Assembly (NCBI GenBank): GCA_964586255.1
Contig: CAZPGE010000003.1
Span: 66,537-130,536 of the forward strand
Length of the DNA: 64,000 nt
Source: an uncultured Candidatus Saccharibacteria bacterium
GTDB lineage: Bacteria; Patescibacteriota; Minisyncoccia; Phycocordibacterales; UBA2100
Direction of reading: 5' to 3'
Made by a program: the position numbers and the translations under genes. Below are positions 31,307 through 64,000 of this stretch, piece after piece. Within the stretch, counting starts at the first letter, position 1. Every line of letters starts with the position of its first letter. The notes under the pieces were generated by a model that saw only the letters and a list, made by a program, of their open reading frames with translations, had not been told where the DNA came from and ran no database searches.

Positions 31307-33082
31307 ATGAAATCTATCTGGCGCGACGACCTCCCGATGAGCAAGAGCCCCTTGCGCTTCTTTCTCTTTTCATCGAGTCCTCATTGGAAAGCAGCGCTTT
31401 TGGCGATAGCGCTTGCCGCGCTCGGCAACATCGCGGCGGCGAGTGTCTCATACATATTTAAGCTCATCGCCAACGCCGCGACTGCGCTCATACAGGGCGG
31501 CACGTTTGAGGCGCTCTTTGTGGCTAGCGCGCTCTACGTACTCGTCCTCGCTCTCGCGAAGCTTTTCTGGAGATTGGCCGGATTTGCCGGTGCGCGCTGG
31601 GCGACAGGCGCCTCGGCGACGGGCCGCTTTGCACTCAGCTCATACGTGACGCTCCATAGTCGTGCGTATTTCTCCGATAGGTTTGCGGGCTCGCTCATGA
31701 ACAAGATTCGGCACGCCGCGACAGGCCTGCGCGATATTGTCGACATCACACTCTGGGAATTCCTCGAGCTTGGAGTGACTGCGGTCATGAGCTTTATCAT
31801 CGCGTTTATCGTGAGCCCCATCATCGCGTGGATTTTCTTTGCGTGGGTACTCGTGATTGGTGTGGCCAATGCATATCTCGGAATCCGGAGAGTGCCCTAT
31901 GCGGTGCGCGCGCACGACCTCGGTACCTACCTCAACGGTGCGACGGTGGACCTCTTGTCCAACGTGAGCGCGATGCAAGAATACGCGCGCCGTGAGTTTG
32001 AGATTGAGCGCATCAAGACCGCTATCGAAGACCATCGTATTGCCCACCTCAAGAGCTGGAATTTTGGCGAGTGGACACGCATCCTCAACAGCGTATTCCT
32101 CGTGATTTTTGGTGGCGCGATGGTCTTTACCACCGTATGGCTCGCGCAAAAGGGACTCCTTTCGATCGGCGATATTGTGCTCGTGATCACGATTATTTTC
32201 CGCGTCGAAGGGCTCTTGCAGGGGCTTGGTTCGAATTTCAATAAAGCGGCGGAAGTGTGGGGTGAAATCTCCGAGAGCCTCGAAGAGATAATCGAGCCGC
32301 ACGAAATTGCGGACACGCCGAATGCAGCCGAGCTCAAGGTGGAGAAAGGCGAGATACGCATCGAGGACGCTACCTTCCAGTATGGACAAAATACCGTGTT
32401 CGAATCTCTGAGCCTGACGATTCGCCCTGGTGAGCGCGTCGGTCTTGTAGGAAGAAGTGGCGCGGGGAAGTCGACGTTTATGCGGCTGCTTCTTCGCCAC
32501 CATGAATTGACCGGCGGGAAAGTATGCATCGACGGCACCGATATCACGACGGTCACCCAAGAGAGTCTGCGCAATGCGATATCAGTCGTGCCACAAGAGC
32601 CGCTGCTCTTCCATCGCACGATTCGAGAAAACATAAGCTACGGAAAACCCGACGCGACCGAGGTGGAGATAATCGAGGCGGCAAAGCTCGCGCATGCGCA
32701 CGACTTCATATCGCGCCTTGAGACCGGCTATGAGTCGATGGTGGGTGAGCGAGGTGTAAAACTCTCAGGTGGAGAGCGCCAGCGCATCGCCATAGCGCGC
32801 GCGATACTCAAAAGCTCCCCCATACTTCTCATGGACGAGGCGACGAGCGCGCTCGATAGCGAAAGCGAGGTCCAGATACAATCGGCGCTTCGCGCACTCA
32901 TGGTAGGGAAGACGGTGATTGCAATCGCGCACCGCCTCTCGACGCTCCGTGAGATGGACCGCATCATCGTGATGGACCGCGGCGCAATTCTCGAGGAAGG
33001 CACGCACGAGGAACTCGTACAAAAAGGTGGGCTCTATGCAGAGCTCTGGGCACATCAGGCGGGAGGCTTCTTGCAGGACTAG
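31307..33082 (+). CDS. ABC exporter, fused permease/ATPase (MsbA-like)
   Basis: Six TM helices in the N-terminal half. Walker A GRSGAGKST, signature LSGGERQRIAIARA, Walker B ILLMDEATSALD. Confidence 0.9.
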   Translation: MKSIWRDDLPMSKSPLRFFLFSSSPHWKAALLAIALAALGNIAAASVSYIFKLIANAATALIQGGTFEALFVASALYVLVLALAKLFWRLAGFAGARWATGASATGRFALSSYVTLHSRAYFSDRFAGSLMNKIRHAATGLRDIVDITLWEFLELGVTAVMSFIIAFIVSPIIAWIFFAWVLVIGVANAYLGIRRVPYAVRAHDLGTYLNGATVDLLSNVSAMQEYARREFEIERIKTAIEDHRIAHLKSWNFGEWTRILNSVFLVIFGGAMVFTTVWLAQKGLLSIGDIVLVITIIFRVEGLLQGLGSNFNKAAEVWGEISESLEEIIEPHEIADTPNAAELKVEKGEIRIEDATFQYGQNTVFESLSLTIRPGERVGLVGRSGAGKSTFMRLLLRHHELTGGKVCIDGTDITTVTQESLRNAISVVPQEPLLFHRTIRENISYGKPDATEVEIIEAAKLAHAHDFISRLETGYESMVGERGVKLSGGERQRIAIARAILKSSPILLMDEATSALDSESEVQIQSALRALMVGKTVIAIAHRLSTLREMDRIIVMDRGAILEEGTHEELVQKGGLYAELWAHQAGGFLQD

Positions 33083-38499: not shown

Positions 38500-38668
38500 C
38501 ATGTTGAAAATCCCCCGACTGCGGGGTGATTTTCTTATGCGGAGAGGAGAAGAGTGCTGAGCACTCTTCGTGAGAGATTCGAACAGCGGAGCGATGCCGA
38601 GCCAGCTGGCGAGGCCGTGAGCTGGTGCCTAGCCCGAGTCCACCGACGGGTGGACGAGAGGCGAAGGA

Positions 38669-38698
38669 GAATCTCTCCCTCTCCGCACGTGTTGAAAA
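38669..38698 (+). repeat. Direct repeat of the tRNA-Ser 3' end plus flank (gaatctctccctctccgca[cg]tgttgaaaa), copy of 38483-38510
   Basis: 28 bp identical apart from a 2-bp insertion, 186 bp downstream of the tRNA; att-like. Confidence 0.6.
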
Positions 38699-38741
38699 AG
38701 GCGTACTTCGGGTACGTCTTTTTCAATGTTGGCGTGCGATA

Positions 38742-39638
38742 ATGGAGCGCATGCAAAGAGGTGGCACTGTGGGACTTCTTCTCGTCGTGTTCGGAATCCT
38801 CGTCGTGACGATGTGGGGAGGGTACTACGCATTCAAGGCAGACCCAGAGCCAGAGCGGGCGCCGACGCCGCTCGTAGAAGTGGTACCAGATGGCGACCCG
38901 CGAAAGACGCGCTCATACGTGATTCTCGACAACAGCTTTGCGTCGGGTGGGGAGTACGTCTACTACAAGACCGGCAGTGACAGCACAGGAGAGCCTGTCT
39001 ACGCCGTCGTGCGTGGTGCCGACCCTGAGACCTTTAAGAAAGTCGGTACCGTCTCGCCGCATATTCCTGGTGGCGCACCTCGCAGCTCCACACAGACCTC
39101 GTCGCTCGTGGGAGGTAGTGGCGGCTCTGCGCAAGAAGCAACGCAAAGCTCACAGACTGTGACGCAGACACAGTCTAGTGGTCCCACACAGCTCGGCTCT
39201 GCCGGAGGCTCTGGTGCCGCCGGCACCTCGTATAGCATCACGTATTACAGTGACGCAAATAATGTGTACATGGTCATAGAGAGCGGCGGACAGACGAGCT
39301 CGCCGCAAGTCGTCGTCGGTGCAGACCCAGCTACTTTTCAGATTTTGAATGCGGAATATTCAAAAGATGCGGAGCATGTGTACGTCATCATCGTGACTTG
39401 CACAGATGGTGTATGTACCGCTTCCGTGTCGATAGTGGCGTCGGCCGACCCTGCGACATTTCAAGCTTTTCCTTCTGCGCAGAATGTTTTGAATTCCGAT
39501 TGTACGGGCTACGTGGTAGCCGATGGTCAGGATGCCAACAATGTGTACAACAACGGTCAGATAGTCGATGGGGTAAGCGTGTACTTGATTGGCGGAGGTG
39601 GCAGCTGCGACGACACGCCGGTCCTCATATCGCCATAG
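38742..39638 (+). CDS. Membrane-anchored DKNYY-like repeat protein
   Basis: N-terminal TM anchor, then repeated units (GEYVYYKTG…ADPETFK; DANNVYMV…ADPATFQ; DAEHVYVI…ADPATFQAF; DANNVYNNG). Confidence 0.5.
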   Translation: MERMQRGGTVGLLLVVFGILVVTMWGGYYAFKADPEPERAPTPLVEVVPDGDPRKTRSYVILDNSFASGGEYVYYKTGSDSTGEPVYAVVRGADPETFKKVGTVSPHIPGGAPRSSTQTSSLVGGSGGSAQEATQSSQTVTQTQSSGPTQLGSAGGSGAAGTSYSITYYSDANNVYMVIESGGQTSSPQVVVGADPATFQILNAEYSKDAEHVYVIIVTCTDGVCTASVSIVASADPATFQAFPSAQNVLNSDCTGYVVADGQDANNVYNNGQIVDGVSVYLIGGGGSCDDTPVLISP

Positions 39639-41625: not shown

Positions 41626-42075
41626 ATGCAAAAGACGATTATTTCCGCGCTCCTCGTCATAATCCTTGCGGCAGGCGCTATCTATTGGCTCAGTGCGAAG
41701 CCGCCCGTCGTCGAAGAGGGTGATGCCACGACGTCAGTCGATTCCACAATGCCAGTGCAGGGCGCTGAGGGGAGAAGCGAAATGACCGTATCGCCAGAGA
41801 CCGCGGGGTCAGACACTGCAGCGCCGGAGCAGAAAGCGGGGACCTATACACTCGCTCAGGTAGCACCACACAATAGCGCGACGAGCTGCTGGAGTGTTAT
41901 CAACGGCGGTGTCTACGACCTTACAAGCTGGATAGCGAAGCATCCGGGCGGCACGCAGGCGATTCTGAGCCTGTGCGGCAAAGATGGAAGTGCTGCGTTC
42001 GTCGGCCAACATGAAGGCGGTGAGAAACAGGCGGCCATGCTGGTCACACTCAAGATAGGCACTCTCGTACAGTAA
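41626..42075 (+). CDS. Membrane-anchored cytochrome b5-like heme-binding domain protein
   Basis: N-terminal TM anchor. …CWSVINGGVYDLTSWIAKHPGGTQAIL… carries the HPGG motif. Confidence 0.7.
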   Translation: MQKTIISALLVIILAAGAIYWLSAKPPVVEEGDATTSVDSTMPVQGAEGRSEMTVSPETAGSDTAAPEQKAGTYTLAQVAPHNSATSCWSVINGGVYDLTSWIAKHPGGTQAILSLCGKDGSAAFVGQHEGGEKQAAMLVTLKIGTLVQ

Positions 42076-59776: not shown

Positions 59777-60355
59777 ATGAGCGCAATGTCTGCGCACACT
59801 TCGCGTTTCGCGCACCCGCATCGCAATATCGATGCACTCGGTATCAGGCCGGGGCAGACTGTCGTCGATTTTGGAGCGGGGAGTGGCGCATACGTCTTTG
59901 CTATCGCAGAGCGCCTCAAAGGCATGGGACACATCTATGCTGTCGACGTGCAGCAAGAGCTCCTGAGACGGATTAAAAATGAATCGCACAAGAGGGGATT
60001 CAAGAATGTAGAGATTATTTGGAGTGACTTGGAGAAGCCCAATAGCTCCATGATTGCAGACCGTCACGCTGACCTCGTGCTGATTTCAAACCTGCTCTTT
60101 CAAGTCGACGCGAAAGAGGCGGTGCTTGCCGAAGCGTGGCGCATATTGAATGCGGCCGGGACACTCGCGGTCATAGACTGGAGTGACTCCTTTGGCGGCA
60201 TGGGTCCAGTGAAGAAAGATGTCGTAAAAAAAGAGAAAGCTATGGAGCTCGCCGATAGAGCCGGCTTTGATCACGTCGGCGACTTTGATGCGGGGGCGCA
60301 TCACTATGGACTGCTCTTTCAGCCAAAGATAGGTGATAATAACCGCACGGTATGA
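59777..60355 (+). CDS. Class I SAM-dependent methyltransferase
   Basis: SAM motif I VVDFGAGSGAYVFAIA. Confidence 0.75.
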   Translation: MSAMSAHTSRFAHPHRNIDALGIRPGQTVVDFGAGSGAYVFAIAERLKGMGHIYAVDVQQELLRRIKNESHKRGFKNVEIIWSDLEKPNSSMIADRHADLVLISNLLFQVDAKEAVLAEAWRILNAAGTLAVIDWSDSFGGMGPVKKDVVKKEKAMELADRAGFDHVGDFDAGAHHYGLLFQPKIGDNNRTV

Positions 60356-61650
60356 AAAGACTTTCAGTATTTCAAGTAATCTTGCTTGCGAGCTTCGGCG
60401 CGATAGCTATTGCAGCAGTGCTTATCTTTGCGTTTGCGGTGGGCGGTGGCTCCACGAGCACTACGGGTGCCGTGCGCATCTGGGGCACGCTCGACGAGAC
60501 CGCATTTACCACCGTGATACGACAGGCTGCAGAGAACAACCCGAACCTCTCTCAGGTCACCTATGAGCAGCAGGACCCGGAAACGTACGACAAGAGACTT
60601 ACCGATGCGCTCGCGAGTGGACAAGGGCCCGATCTCTTTCTTTTCCGCCAAGACAATGCCTTCTCCGATGCGAGCAAAGTCATCCCGATACCATTTACGT
60701 CTCTCACAGAATCGCAATTTAGCTCGGCATTTGTAGATGCCGCACAGCCATTCATCTCGCAAAGTGGTGTGCTCGCGATACCGCTACTCGTCGACCCGCT
60801 CGTCCTCTATTGGAACAAAGACACACTCTCCACCGCCGGATACGCAAAAGCACCACAGTTTTGGGACGAGCTCTACAAAATAGCGGGTGATATCACGAAA
60901 AAGACCGACGCAGGCACGATTCAGAAAAGCGCGCTTCCATTTGGTGAGTATCGCAACGTCAATGGCGCGAAAGCGATTCTCTCCACTTTGATTCTGCAAG
61001 CGGGCGGCAACATCACGACGCGCGACACTGCGGGCAACCTCGTCTCCGCCATCTCGCCGCGTACTGGTGAGACCGCACAGTCCACTGCCAACGCGCTGAG
61101 ATTCTATACGGAGTTTGCCGACCCTTCTAAACCGCACTACACGTGGAACCGTGCTCTTCCGGATGCGCGAAAGTCTTTTGCGGCGGGGGACCTCGCGCTC
61201 TATATAGGCAATGCGAGCGAGGAACCGCTCATCCGCCGCATGAATCCGAATCTTAATTTTTCGGTTTCGGCGGTGCCCCAAATACGCGGTGCTGCACGCG
61301 CGGTGGTCACGGGGTACGTATACGGCCTGGCAGTACCGCGCACCAGCAGCAACCCGTCGGGCGCCGCGATAGTGGCCTTTGACCTTGCGGGAGCGGAGAT
61401 GTCGCGGGCGCTCTCGACTGCGCTCGGCATCCCTTCGGTCAGGCGCGACGTGCTCTCCATGCCAGCAGAGGGCAACGACGTGATATACAACAGACAAGCT
61501 ATCATCACACGCTCCTGGATAGACCCCGACCCAGAAAAGACAGAGGTCATCTTCCGCGATATGATTGAAAGCACGGTCAGTGGTGCCGCGCTCGTGACCG
61601 AAGCTGTGCAAAGAGCGGACCAAGAAATGGCTGCTATGCTAGGACAATGA
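60352..61650 (+). CDS. Extracellular solute-binding protein (ABC transporter SBP family 1), membrane-anchored
   Basis: N-terminal TM anchor. SBP_bac_1-like sequence (…GQGPDLFLF…, LALYIGNASE). No cognate permease or ATPase in the window. Confidence 0.75.
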   Translation: MKRLSVFQVILLASFGAIAIAAVLIFAFAVGGGSTSTTGAVRIWGTLDETAFTTVIRQAAENNPNLSQVTYEQQDPETYDKRLTDALASGQGPDLFLFRQDNAFSDASKVIPIPFTSLTESQFSSAFVDAAQPFISQSGVLAIPLLVDPLVLYWNKDTLSTAGYAKAPQFWDELYKIAGDITKKTDAGTIQKSALPFGEYRNVNGAKAILSTLILQAGGNITTRDTAGNLVSAISPRTGETAQSTANALRFYTEFADPSKPHYTWNRALPDARKSFAAGDLALYIGNASEEPLIRRMNPNLNFSVSAVPQIRGAARAVVTGYVYGLAVPRTSSNPSGAAIVAFDLAGAEMSRALSTALGIPSVRRDVLSMPAEGNDVIYNRQAIITRSWIDPDPEKTEVIFRDMIESTVSGAALVTEAVQRADQEMAAMLGQ

Positions 61651-61994
61651 AATACCTCAAACACACACTCGCATACGCACTTCCGCTTGCGACTCTCATA
61701 GTCGCTGATGTTGCTTCTGCGCAGAATCAACAGCTACAGAATCCGCTCACCATCAGCGACATCTCGGGCTTCATATCGCTCGTCCTCAAGGTCATGGTGA
61801 TGGTGGCGCTTCCTATCATCAGTTTCTTTATCGTGTACTCGGGCTTCCTCTTCATCTCAGCGCAAGGCAATCAAGAGGCGCTCAGCAAAGCCAAGACCAA
61901 TCTTCTCTACGTACTCATCGGTTCTGTATTGATACTCGGCGCGTGGGTGATATCGACGCTCATAGGCGGCACGGTCACGCAGCTTGTCCGCTAA
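61647..61994 (+). CDS. VirB2/TrbC-pilin-like small membrane protein, paralog 1 of 5
   Basis: Signal peptide plus two hydrophobic helices. Shares motif pattern with the next four ORFs. Confidence 0.55.
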   Translation: MKYLKHTLAYALPLATLIVADVASAQNQQLQNPLTISDISGFISLVLKVMVMVALPIISFFIVYSGFLFISAQGNQEALSKAKTNLLYVLIGSVLILGAWVISTLIGGTVTQLVR

Positions 61995-62000
61995 CTACGT

Positions 62001-62393
62001 ATGAGGAAACCTTATCTGTTCGCTCTCTCTGCGGTGGCGCTGCTTTTCCCCGCAGTCACCTTTGCGGCACCGCGCACGTTTAATGAGCTGGCCAATCTCA
62101 TCGTCACGATTCTTGATACGGGCACGGGGCTTCTTATCTTGGGAGGTATCGTGGTGTACTTTTGGGGTATCTCCACAAACATTCTCAAAATGAAAGATGA
62201 GGGGAGCCAGGCATTCAAGGCGTACTTCGTATGGGGACTCATTGCCATTTTTGTCATGTTTTCTATCTGGGGCATTATCGAAATATTGCAGAACACGATA
62301 TTTGGCGGGGACTACTACGACCCGAGTGGTGGAAGCCCGGCGCAATCCGGAGGCGGCGGTTCGTCGACGCAGTTTCCTGTATTTGGCGAATAA
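62001..62393 (+). CDS. VirB2/TrbC-pilin-like small membrane protein, paralog 2
   Basis: Signal peptide AVALLFPAVTFA. …VVYFWGISTNI…GLIAIFVMFSIWGIIEILQNT. Gly-rich tail. Confidence 0.55.
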   Translation: MRKPYLFALSAVALLFPAVTFAAPRTFNELANLIVTILDTGTGLLILGGIVVYFWGISTNILKMKDEGSQAFKAYFVWGLIAIFVMFSIWGIIEILQNTIFGGDYYDPSGGSPAQSGGGGSSTQFPVFGE

Positions 62394-62396
62394 GAT

Positions 62397-62780
62397 ATGA
62401 GGCGCGCCCTCCTGCCACTTTGTATCGTGCTCCTGCCCTCCGCGGCATCTGCCCAGGTGCTCTCACAGGTATCCGGACTTTTCAATATCATGGTCGGGCT
62501 GATGCTCGTCTTTGCCTTCCTCTTCTTTTTCGGGGGCTTAGGCATGTGGTTTGTGCGTCTTGGGACATGGCCGACGTATCGCGATGAAGCCATCAGACTG
62601 ATGCAGTGGGGCGTGGTGATTCTCTTCGTGCTCGCTGCGCTCCTCGCAATCGTTCAGTTTGTGCAAAAACACGTGGCCGCGGCTACGTTCTTGGCAGGCA
62701 TCGTCATCGTGATTGGTGTGGCGTGGATGGTGGTCACCGTTTCTCAGGCCAAGGGAGAGGACGACGAGAAGAAGCATTAA
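62397..62780 (+). CDS. VirB2/TrbC-pilin-like small membrane protein, paralog 3
   Basis: Signal peptide LLPSAASA followed by two TM helices. Confidence 0.55.
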   Translation: MRRALLPLCIVLLPSAASAQVLSQVSGLFNIMVGLMLVFAFLFFFGGLGMWFVRLGTWPTYRDEAIRLMQWGVVILFVLAALLAIVQFVQKHVAAATFLAGIVIVIGVAWMVVTVSQAKGEDDEKKH

Positions 62781-62851
62781 AAGGGCTATCCACACTAGGC
62801 GCCGCGGTGTCTATTGTATTTTCGGCCCCCAGGGCTACGATTAGTCTAATT

Positions 62852-63235
62852 ATGACTAAAACGAGCTTCGCTATGCGCGCACGATTAATCTTCACATCTG
62901 TAGTTACCGCCGCTGTTATCGGTCTTCCGTCTTTTGTCGGCGCGGCCAGCCTCTTTGATACGCTCTCTCTGGCCAATACGTTCCTCAACGCGCTCATCGG
63001 TCTCTTCATTACGCTCGCAATCGTCGTCTTCTTCTGGGGCCTCATCAAATACCTCTGGAGCGTAAGCTCGGAAAATGCGAGTGAAGGCCTCCAAATCATG
63101 ATGTACGGCGTCATCGCCATCTTCGTCATGGTGTCAATCTGGGGCATCATCCGCCTCTTGCAGAACACGTTCAAAGTTACCTCTACGGATCCGATCATCC
63201 CGAAGGGTATCCAGATAAACGCAGTGCAGTACTAG
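62852..63235 (+). CDS. VirB2/TrbC-pilin-like small membrane protein, paralog 4
   Basis: …VVFFWGLIKYLW…GVIAIFVMVSIWGIIRLLQNTF is almost identical in pattern to paralog 2. Start re-set to MTKTSF. Confidence 0.55.
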   Translation: MTKTSFAMRARLIFTSVVTAAVIGLPSFVGAASLFDTLSLANTFLNALIGLFITLAIVVFFWGLIKYLWSVSSENASEGLQIMMYGVIAIFVMVSIWGIIRLLQNTFKVTSTDPIIPKGIQINAVQY

Positions 63236-63255
63236 GCTGCTAGGCGAGGCTACTC

Positions 63256-63567
63256 ATGAACGCTGCCTCAACGCTCATAGATAGGTTTGTTGATTACATC
63301 ATAAACCCGATGATTCTCATCGTGTTTGCGACAGGATTCTTCCTGTTTGTCTGGGGGCTCGTGCAGTTTATCTACAAGCTCGACGAAGGCGCGCAATCGA
63401 GCGGCAAACAGCATATGCTCTGGGGTATCGTGGGCATGCTCATCATGGTCTCTGTATACGGCATCATTGGACTGATCGACGAGACCTTCAACCTCGACAT
63501 CGGCAATCCCGACATGAGCCGTATGAACAACATCACGGCTCCAGCGGATTTCGGGGGACAGCAGTAG
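63256..63567 (+). CDS. VirB2/TrbC-pilin-like small membrane protein, paralog 5
   Basis: …LFVWGLVQFIYK…GIVGMLIMVSVYGIIGLIDETF. Confidence 0.55.
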   Translation: MNAASTLIDRFVDYIINPMILIVFATGFFLFVWGLVQFIYKLDEGAQSSGKQHMLWGIVGMLIMVSVYGIIGLIDETFNLDIGNPDMSRMNNITAPADFGGQQ

Positions 63568-63730
63568 GAGCGTTCGTATCTTGGCAGAGGGGCTCGGCCA
63601 AGAGCTCGTTTTGATGCCGTCGCATCAAAACTCCTCTCGGCACTGCTCGCGTCGCCCCATCTGTTGATGGGGCCCCCGCCGCTCCCTTTCGAGTCTCCCT
63701 CTGACCAAAAACAGTAATCGCCGAGAGATG

Positions 63731-63812
63731 TACTCTCGGCTCAACTGTTTTAGTGGGCAGAGGGAGACTCGAACTCCCAACCCTTGCGGGACTAGGTCCT
63801 AAGCCTAGCGCG
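63731..63812 (-). tRNA. tRNA-Leu (TAG), type-II
   Basis: Minus-strand reading GGGCAGA-TG-GCGGAATTGGTATACGC-G-CTAGG-CTTAGGA-CCTAG-TCCCGCAAGGGTT-GGGAGTTCGAGTCTCCC-TCTGCCC-A. Confidence 0.85.
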
Positions 63813-64000
63813 TATACCAATTCCGCCATCTGCCCAACTCGCGTATCCTACCAAATAATCACTCCCTTGGCGCTGTCTCTGTGGTCACAGATAATTCGTT
63901 CGCGGCCATTCTCAGTAGGATGCGGCCAAGCGCTCAGCGTGACTCCGGCCCGCACTTCGTGGTCACAAATAATCCCTCGCCGTCGCTCGCGATTTTCGCG

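Follow-up and report, generated by a model that had tools for sequence, protein, structure and literature searches.

The window analyzed here, a stretch of 64,000 nucleotides (nt) of contig CAZPGE010000003.1, carries near its end a tandem array of five small genes predicted to encode membrane proteins of the VirB2/TrbC pilin type. The initial annotation of this DNA described five consecutive open reading frames (ORFs) on the + strand, and all five are present and are real genes with orthologues under purifying selection. Gene 1 (61647-61994, +) encodes a canonical TrbC/VirB2-like pilin-type protein of 115 amino acids (aa) with two hydrophobic helices and a predicted signal peptide ending at ASA/Q (the slash marks the cleavage site). 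Gene 2 (62001-62393, +, 130 aa) is a divergent PF18895-type paralogue with a predicted signal peptide ending at TFA/A, two helices and a Gly-rich C-terminal tail; the one Gly-rich tail mentioned in the annotation belongs to this gene. Gene 3 (62397-62780, +, 127 aa) is the most divergent paralogue and combines a predicted signal peptide (ASA/Q) with three hydrophobic helices and a charged tail. Gene 4 (+), the best-conserved paralogue with a predicted signal peptide ending at VGA/A, can be read from 62852 to 63235 as a protein of 127 aa; a start at ATG 62873, giving 120 aa, is more probable because its homologues are mostly 118-122 aa long, covering 94% of the 127-aa form. Gene 5 (63256-63567, +, 103 aa) is a minimal two-helix paralogue without signal peptide that always closes the array. 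The lengths originally given for the other four ORFs (115, 130, 127 and 103 aa) stand, and the 128 aa given for the fourth has to be replaced by 127 or, more likely, 120 aa. Genes 1 and 2 are separated by 6 nt, genes 2 and 3 by 3 nt, genes 3 and 4 by 92 nt and genes 4 and 5 by 20 nt. The 92 nt between genes 3 and 4 (62781-62872) form the only sizeable gap within the array and contain a hairpin followed by a T-rich run (62796-62823). A scan for consensus promoters and terminators near the array did not rise above the shuffled expectation, so nothing is drawn from it.

Signal peptides and helices were judged from hydropathy and from AxA-type cleavage sites. The proteins encoded by genes 1-4 share a signal-peptide-like N-terminal segment that ends in an AxA-type site and is followed by two strongly hydrophobic helices, and for these genes the leaders and membrane helices that had been proposed are seen in the hydropathy profiles. 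The common architecture ascribed to all five does not extend to the whole array: gene 3 has an extra, third hydrophobic helix at the C-terminal side together with its charged tail, and gene 5 is leaderless, as are its orthologues, its N-terminus being the equivalent of the mature start of the other proteins. The FWG...IWGII...LQNT motif, once regarded as conserved throughout, is held in genes 2 and 4, relaxed in gene 5 (VWG...VYGII...IDET), weak in gene 3 and absent from gene 1. Gene 4, with the motifs FFWGLIKYL...IFVMVSIWGIIRLLQNT, has 765 close homologues, Kaiserbacteria for the most part. Pairwise identity among the five paralogues is 20-33%, and the window contains no further family member.

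A search with pilin-family hidden Markov models had been proposed as a check of the VirB2/TrbC assignment. In this search genes 1 and 4 match PF18895 (T4SS_pilin) with 29.4 and 32.5 bits, where the gathering score is 26.6; genes 5 and 2, at 20.2 and 14.1 bits, stay under it, and the window copy of gene 3 has no Pfam match. When the orthologues were scanned, PF18895 was the top family in every set, matching all 77 orthologues of gene 1 (77/77), 7/42 of gene 2, 7/35 of gene 3 and 37/43 of gene 5. The TrbC/VirB2 family PF04956 is matched by 71 of the 77 gene 1 orthologues (E <= 0.01; best 6.1e-11), and about half of the database homologues bear a precomputed PF04956 match, while genes 2-5 are essentially without one (a single match among 42 gene 2 orthologues). 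NCBIfam gave sub-threshold matches only, to a pilin-like protein of Mycoplasma integrative and conjugative elements (ICEs) and to TraQ. Profile-profile comparison of the orthologue alignments with hhalign, in which a methyltransferase used as negative control reached 0.1-0.2%, linked gene 4 to genes 2, 5 and 3 with probabilities of 99.8, 99.4 and 98.3%; the pairs 2-5, 2-3 and 3-5 reached 98.7, 96 and 88%. With gene 1 the values were only 59% (gene 2) and 15% (gene 4), and gene 1 is therefore an outlier that is joined to genes 2-5 through the Pfam family. Genes 2-5 form a divergent PF18895 subfamily, with genes 2, 3 and 5 tied to gene 4 at 98-99.8%. Together, the Pfam matches of genes 1 and 4, the orthologue scans and the profile links (88-99.8% among genes 2-5) support membership of the five proteins in the superfamily of VirB2/TrbC-type pilins of type IV secretion systems (T4SS), as the annotation had suggested. 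Genes 2, 3 and 5 are usually annotated as "hypothetical" and can be named from gene 4. The AlphaFold2 model of mature gene 1 is a helical hairpin (H14-46 and H51-89) with a mean predicted local distance difference test score (pLDDT) of 79, and that of gene 4 shows a signal-peptide helix and two long helices (pLDDT 73); the modeled fold would suit a pilin, but so simple a shape as a helical hairpin does not discriminate.

The window is 54-60% GC and carries housekeeping genes throughout, among them SMC, rpoB, rpoC, dnaG, sigA, a class I aminoacyl-tRNA synthetase, tsaD, ftsZ, a gene for an S1-domain protein and gyrA. At close range, the homologues of the array and of the solute-binding protein (SBP) gene that precedes it are found in genomes of Candidatus Kaiserbacteria and other Paceibacteria (Parcubacteria), and the window is a chromosomal stretch of a bacterium of the Candidate Phyla Radiation (CPR)/Patescibacteria. 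Locus L054, on contig VMEY01000029.1 of "Parcubacteria group bacterium Athens0416_74", represents the nearest relative found; its GyrA differs from that of the window with nonsynonymous and synonymous distances (dN and dS) of 0.004 and 0.60. Array loci were collected by a scan with one genome per species, which gave 80 loci (here designated by L numbers). The block gyrA-methyltransferase-SBP-gene 1-2-3-4-5 keeps its order wherever the contig reaches far enough, and every position of the array best matches its own counterpart, so that one-to-one orthologues exist in about 80 species of the Kaiserbacteria clade.

Exactly five family members are present in 68 of the 80 distinct loci, and those that deviate are mostly loci cut by a contig end, the two with an extra gene 4, and loci in which position 3 is too divergent to be detected. 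Position 3 is the most variable of the array between genomes, and about 10 loci have a short ORF there. Over the ~80 species the median identity to the window is 51, 42, 41, 63 and 53% for genes 1 to 5, 55% for the SBP, 57% for the methyltransferase and 83% for GyrA; the array genes diverge about as fast as the adjoining SBP and methyltransferase genes. Against L054, at an unsaturated dS of 0.44-0.88, the dN/dS ratios of genes 1 to 5 are 0.10, 0.03, 0.04, 0.03 and 0.01, which indicates purifying selection. Because of this one-to-one orthology, the fixed copy number and the low dN/dS, the five positions are best described as old, individually constrained paralogues and not as a rapidly diversifying or copy-variable family. 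The initial annotation had seen in the five divergent copies a diversifying, antigenically variable family and had named dN/dS and copy number as the quantities to examine; both turned out against that idea. The only clear copy-number changes seen are the two extra gene 4 copies, one lying 3 kb downstream of the array (L016:11067-11426) and the other directly after gene 5 (L042:8254-8685). In L054 itself gene 4 is split across two reading frames (L054:9440-9942), through either a frameshift or faulty assembly, with its four companions intact.

A profile of the gene 4 orthologues collected 7,726 cluster representatives from a library of 1.84 billion proteins. All distant members with at least 5 kb of context lie in the same type of locus (L085, 43% GC; L088, 37% GC; a contig of JGI 3300071358), where gyrA is followed by a methyltransferase gene, an SBP gene, a gene 1-like gene, a gene 4-like gene and, further on, a gene 5-like gene. 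The arrays of these lineages close with leaderless gene 5 equivalents of 80-81 aa, and rbfA and infB lie downstream in the two contigs that extend far enough. Since this arrangement is shared by the distant loci, the linkage between SBP and array extends well beyond the loci of the Kaiserbacteria clade that were collected first. Among the best 150 representatives, 54 are fusions of 190-370 aa with two or three tandem pilin-like domains, a leader on the first copy alone and Gly/Ser/Pro/Thr-rich linkers between the copies; examples among relatives of genes 2-5 are P0363, P0364, P0366, P0380 and P0383. The triple-domain proteins P0364 and P0366 are encoded in mid-array, after gene 1-like genes, in the same gyrA-methyltransferase-SBP locus (L085:6239-7240 and L088:3343-4419). 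With the N- and C-terminus of every domain predicted to lie outside the membrane, such fusions are topologically possible, and they argue that neighbouring members of the array act together in one assembly. A 645-aa gene embedded in the L085 array has no T4SS signature and shows a weak match to glycosyltransferase family 2 only.

The array is the distal part of an apparent operon. The operon's first gene encodes a class I S-adenosylmethionine-dependent methyltransferase (59777-60355, +; Pfam Methyltransf_31/25/11) that starts 51 nt after gyrA and overlaps the next gene by 4 nt (stop/start overlap). That gene (60352-61650, +) encodes a membrane-tethered SBP of family 1 (sugar type; PF13416 SBP_bac_8, E = 1.4e-16; also PF01547). 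The protein of 432 aa consists of an N-terminal transmembrane anchor, a Gly/Ser/Thr linker and a family-1 solute-binding fold, and it distantly resembles solved sugar-binding proteins (4r9f, 2.8e-10) and MalE-type proteins. The SBP gene in turn overlaps gene 1 by 4 nt (ATGA), an overlap kept in 54 of 77 loci, and the order gyrA-methyltransferase-SBP-array holds in all loci that reach the SBP position (77/80). No importer permease of the BPD_transp_1 type and no ATP-binding cassette (ABC) ATPase adjoins the SBP gene in the window or in the relatives checked, and the sole ABC gene of the window (31307-33082) is an exporter-type fusion. Because there is no ABC importer permease nearby, the SBP looks orphaned or re-purposed. 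A functional link between the methyltransferase and the array is unproven. The SBP homologues among the matches listed were close relatives only (at least 56% identity), and for that reason the breadth of the linkage was approached through the distant pilin-domain matches described above.

Tandem VirB2-like arrays in Patescibacteria have already been published, and this kind of locus is known. Quiñonero-Coronel et al. 2025 (PMC12102498) screened 3,035 genomes of Patescibacteria for PF04956 and PF18895 and described 441 arrays, each of 2-11 VirB2-like genes, distributed over 383 assemblies, with a mean identity of 25% and a maximum of 54%; an array was defined by pilin-type genes in tandem or one gene apart. 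Their array figure covers arrays near virB4, and according to the authors arrays are most abundant in Microgenomatia and Saccharimonadia. Of 1,948 assemblies only 1,135 had the pilin gene close to virB4; such proximity is therefore common and not defining. In Southlakia epibionticum, Wang et al. 2023 (PMC10633639) described six tandem PF18895 genes (SEML1_0014-0019), all scored essential, which adjoin VirB6-like and PrgI genes inside a T4SS cluster, and a 2025 review (PMC12857230) gives the same picture of the Patescibacteria arrays. The present locus falls within the published range of 2-11 tandem genes of low identity, with its gaps of 6, 3, 92 and 20 nt. It shares with the published arrays the Pfam family, the protein size (100-185 aa), the phylum, a chromosomal position off mobile elements, and the presence of five or six very divergent tandem paralogues (20-33% identity here against a published mean of ~25%). 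In contrast to the S. epibionticum array, which lies within a T4SS cluster, it is unlinked to virB4 for more than 61 kb on one side and, in three relatives, for more than 10 kb on the other, and it follows the methyltransferase and membrane-tethered SBP genes downstream of gyrA. An SBP partner is mentioned in none of these papers, and no paper was found that combines both. As far as the literature found shows, the virB4-distal, SBP-coupled Paceibacteria version, its one-to-one orthology and purifying selection, and its fused forms are undescribed.

Comparison with better known pilins gives a similar mixture of likeness and difference. TrbC of RP4, VirB2 of Agrobacterium and TraA of F likewise have a cleavable leader followed by a two-helix hydrophobic hairpin. 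The classical conjugative pilins are encoded by one gene adjoining virB3 and virB4 in a diderm host, whereas the present locus holds five paralogues, belongs to a CPR cell of monoderm type, has no T4SS genes beside it and shows no sequence match to a solved pilin. Several divergent tandem virB2 genes occur in Bartonella and in Anaplasma phagocytophilum, where antigenic or host-range variation of the VirB2 paralogues has been proposed (cited in PMC12102498); unlike those, the present genes have a stable copy number, one-to-one orthology, purifying selection and domain fusions in relatives. The Mbov_0395/MMCAP2_0565 protein of Mycoplasma ICEs (NCBIfam NF045849) is a small two-helix membrane protein that belongs, like the proteins considered here, to the setting of a wall-less or monoderm T4SS. 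NF045849 weakly matches gene 1 (26 bits, E = 5e-6; family cut-off 40 bits) and gene 5, and its members are encoded on an ICE whereas the present array is chromosomal and conserved.

The explanation that we consider best, with a probability of about 70%, is that the five genes encode a fixed, non-redundant set of VirB2-like subunits of a heteromer that serves a Patescibacterial T4SS, and that the locus is the Kaiserbacteria version of the published arrays. The products of genes 1-4 would be inserted through the Sec pathway and cleaved by signal peptidase I after their AxA-type sites, and that of gene 5 would enter the membrane without a leader. Each mature subunit would be a membrane hairpin with both ends outside, so that the variable C-terminal tails would be exposed. 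The five proteins would then co-assemble, with gene 1 as the canonical TrbC-like subunit and genes 2-5 as its lineage-specific partners, into a pilus-like or channel-lining structure. Its assembly or use would fall to VirB4/VirB6 machinery encoded at another place in the genome, and it would serve contact with a host cell or transfer in either direction. The co-translated, tethered sugar-type SBP might act alongside, for example as a surface-exposed binding module, although this part is speculation.

Several results weigh against this explanation. The gene 1 of the window itself has no PF04956 match at E <= 1, no solved pilin came up when PDB sequences were searched with profiles of genes 1 and 4, and Foldseek returned no significant match and no conjugative pilin in its top 50. 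The window contains no virB4, virB6, type IV coupling protein or other T4SS gene in the 61 kb upstream of the array. The ORFs of at least 500 aa are all housekeeping genes or their shadows, and the five membrane-protein ORFs scanned gave no T4SS family (one is a PrsW protease, one a CDP-alcohol phosphatidyltransferase, and three have no Pfam match), in agreement with the earlier statement that T4SS ATPase and channel genes are not visible in the window. It had also been proposed to look for VirB4/VirD4-like genes downstream, and no T4SS gene was found within 10 kb downstream in the three relatives with called genes listed; the other listed loci have none in their flanks either, those flanks being shorter. 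Among the entries of Table S1 of PMC12102498 considered here, 4 of 10 array-bearing draft genomes are listed without VirB4, including the closest relative, Athens0416_74, and none of the papers considered demonstrates a pilus made of a VirB2-like protein from Patescibacteria. The same entries list VirB4 for the other 6 of the 10 array-bearing drafts and for 19 of 24 Kaiserbacteria drafts. This pattern fits a T4SS encoded elsewhere combined with incomplete drafts, and it is no proof of dependence.

Alternatively, the five VirB2-fold proteins and the tethered SBP could make up a membrane or surface assembly of their own that no longer depends on VirB4, such as an uptake, sensing or adhesion device whose proteins were recruited from T4SS pilins. 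The stop/start overlap that joins the SBP gene to gene 1 (window; 54 of 77 loci), the gyrA-methyltransferase-SBP-array order in 77 of 80 loci and in the distant lineages of 37-43% GC, the lack of an ABC permease or ATPase adjoining the SBP gene and the lack of virB4 in any locus with genes listed all agree with it, as do the four array-bearing drafts without VirB4 in the Table S1 entries considered, whose sizes (741-873 kb) compare with 859 kb for a complete genome. However, synteny in small streamlined genomes need not imply shared function, and the VirB4 absences fit incomplete drafts, given the 19 of 24 Kaiserbacteria drafts that have the gene in those entries. In S. epibionticum, the only relative tested genetically, the homologous array belongs to the T4SS cluster, both being essential, and no known system pairs an SBP with VirB2-fold proteins. 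We hold such an independent module to be fairly unlikely. Its more specific form is slightly more doubtful still: the VirB2-fold proteins of Paceibacteria may have lost their tie to the T4SS and been joined by the SBP, perhaps also by the methyltransferase, in a VirB4-independent heteromeric surface or membrane device with a TrbC-like subunit encoded first, a leaderless minimal subunit last and subunits fused in some lineages. If true, such a device might serve host-glycan binding or nutrient capture by epibionts.

A heteromeric assembly is favoured over antigenic variation because the paralogues are individually conserved and under purifying selection, keep a fixed order and are fused in relatives. 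Variable surface pilins like the VirB2 proteins of Bartonella and Anaplasma, with changing copy number and positive selection, would be in keeping with the 20-33% identity of the paralogues, their variable C-terminal tails and the occasional extra gene 4 copies of L016 and L042, and the analogy has been raised for Patescibacteria arrays (PMC12102498). They are very improbable here in view of an own orthologue for each position in about 80 species, five genes in 68 of the 80 loci, dN/dS values of 0.01-0.10 at unsaturated dS and a divergence similar to that of the adjoining SBP and methyltransferase genes, and the multi-domain fusions argue for co-assembly and not for alternative use. Lower still in our estimate stands a remnant of a conjugative or mobile element integrated at the tRNA-Leu gene, of which the pilin genes would be leftover cargo. 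The array does adjoin a tRNA gene with fragmentary copies of its 3' end close by (an inverted one in the window, a direct one in L054); yet these fragments flank only an insert of 180-275 nt downstream of the array, the array occupies the same site in all lineages examined, with gyrA on one side and the rbfA/infB block on the other, base composition is even (GC 0.54-0.55), the ORF scans of the window found no integrase, relaxase or ATPase, and the array genes are under purifying selection. This reading was rejected on conserved synteny and composition.

Patescibacteria, which live on other cells, account for a large part of the uncultured bacteria. In the sole species tested genetically this lifestyle requires the T4SS with its VirB2-like array, and the structure made from the products of the array is the question that the present observations constrain. 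The tethered sugar-type SBP is a concrete candidate partner of the virB4-distal array in Kaiserbacteria and related Paceibacteria.

Downstream, the array ends at a tRNA-Leu gene, as had been noted: tRNA-Leu(TAG), found by ARAGORN and scored at 59.7 bits by the Rfam tRNA model, lies on the - strand at 63753-63835, 185 nt after gene 5. Between the two is a lineage-specific spacer insert of ~177 nt (63570-63746) that stands outside the array proper; L001 and L002 do without it and have the tRNA 11 nt after gene 5, and L054 has a related, larger spacer partly shared with that of the window. Within the insert the 3' end of tRNA-Leu, with T-loop and 3' acceptor strand, recurs as an inverted copy (19/20), for which shuffles expect zero matches. 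This copy had been reported correctly except for its position, which is 63688-63707 (+) and not 63676-63697. In L054 a direct 18/20 copy of the tRNA-Leu end (L054:10328-10347) is found 222 nt away. The window copy was considered as a second tRNA and rejected, since it lacks upstream sequence able to pair as a T-stem and goes undetected by ARAGORN and Rfam alike; in the spacer between gene 5 and the tRNA, Rfam gives chance matches to microRNA-like hairpins only, caused by the inverted repeat. In relatives, tRNA-Leu(TAG) heads a tRNA cluster (Leu-TAG, Lys-CTT, Leu-TAA, Cys-GCA) whose orientation differs in L007 and L005. The suspected rearrangement at the tRNA is partly borne out by the insert and by the orientation changes of the cluster, and it has nothing to do with the array itself. 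The copy of the tRNA 3' end looks like the scar of an insertion or inversion at the tRNA, and from sequence comparison the spot between gene 5 and the tRNA is probably a small hotspot of rearrangement or insertion that is unrelated to the function of the array. Strand and order of the tRNA cluster vary between close relatives (L007:3347-3862, L005:10879-11321, L001:3294-4395, L054:10549-12013).

A few further observations concern other parts of these genomes. At L001:12079-12516, immediately ahead of the gene for ribosomal protein L33, stands a solitary gene of ~145 aa that matches PF18895 weakly (22 bits), and a solitary PF18895-like gene also occurs in L007, L034, L060 and L069; it is placed ~9 kb past the array, outside the window. 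Within the window, positions 41626-42075 (+) encode a membrane-anchored cytochrome b5-like haem-binding protein, which is unexpected for a CPR genome; the CPR lineage is generally described as being without a respiratory chain. A DKNYY-family protein is encoded at 38625-39638 (+).

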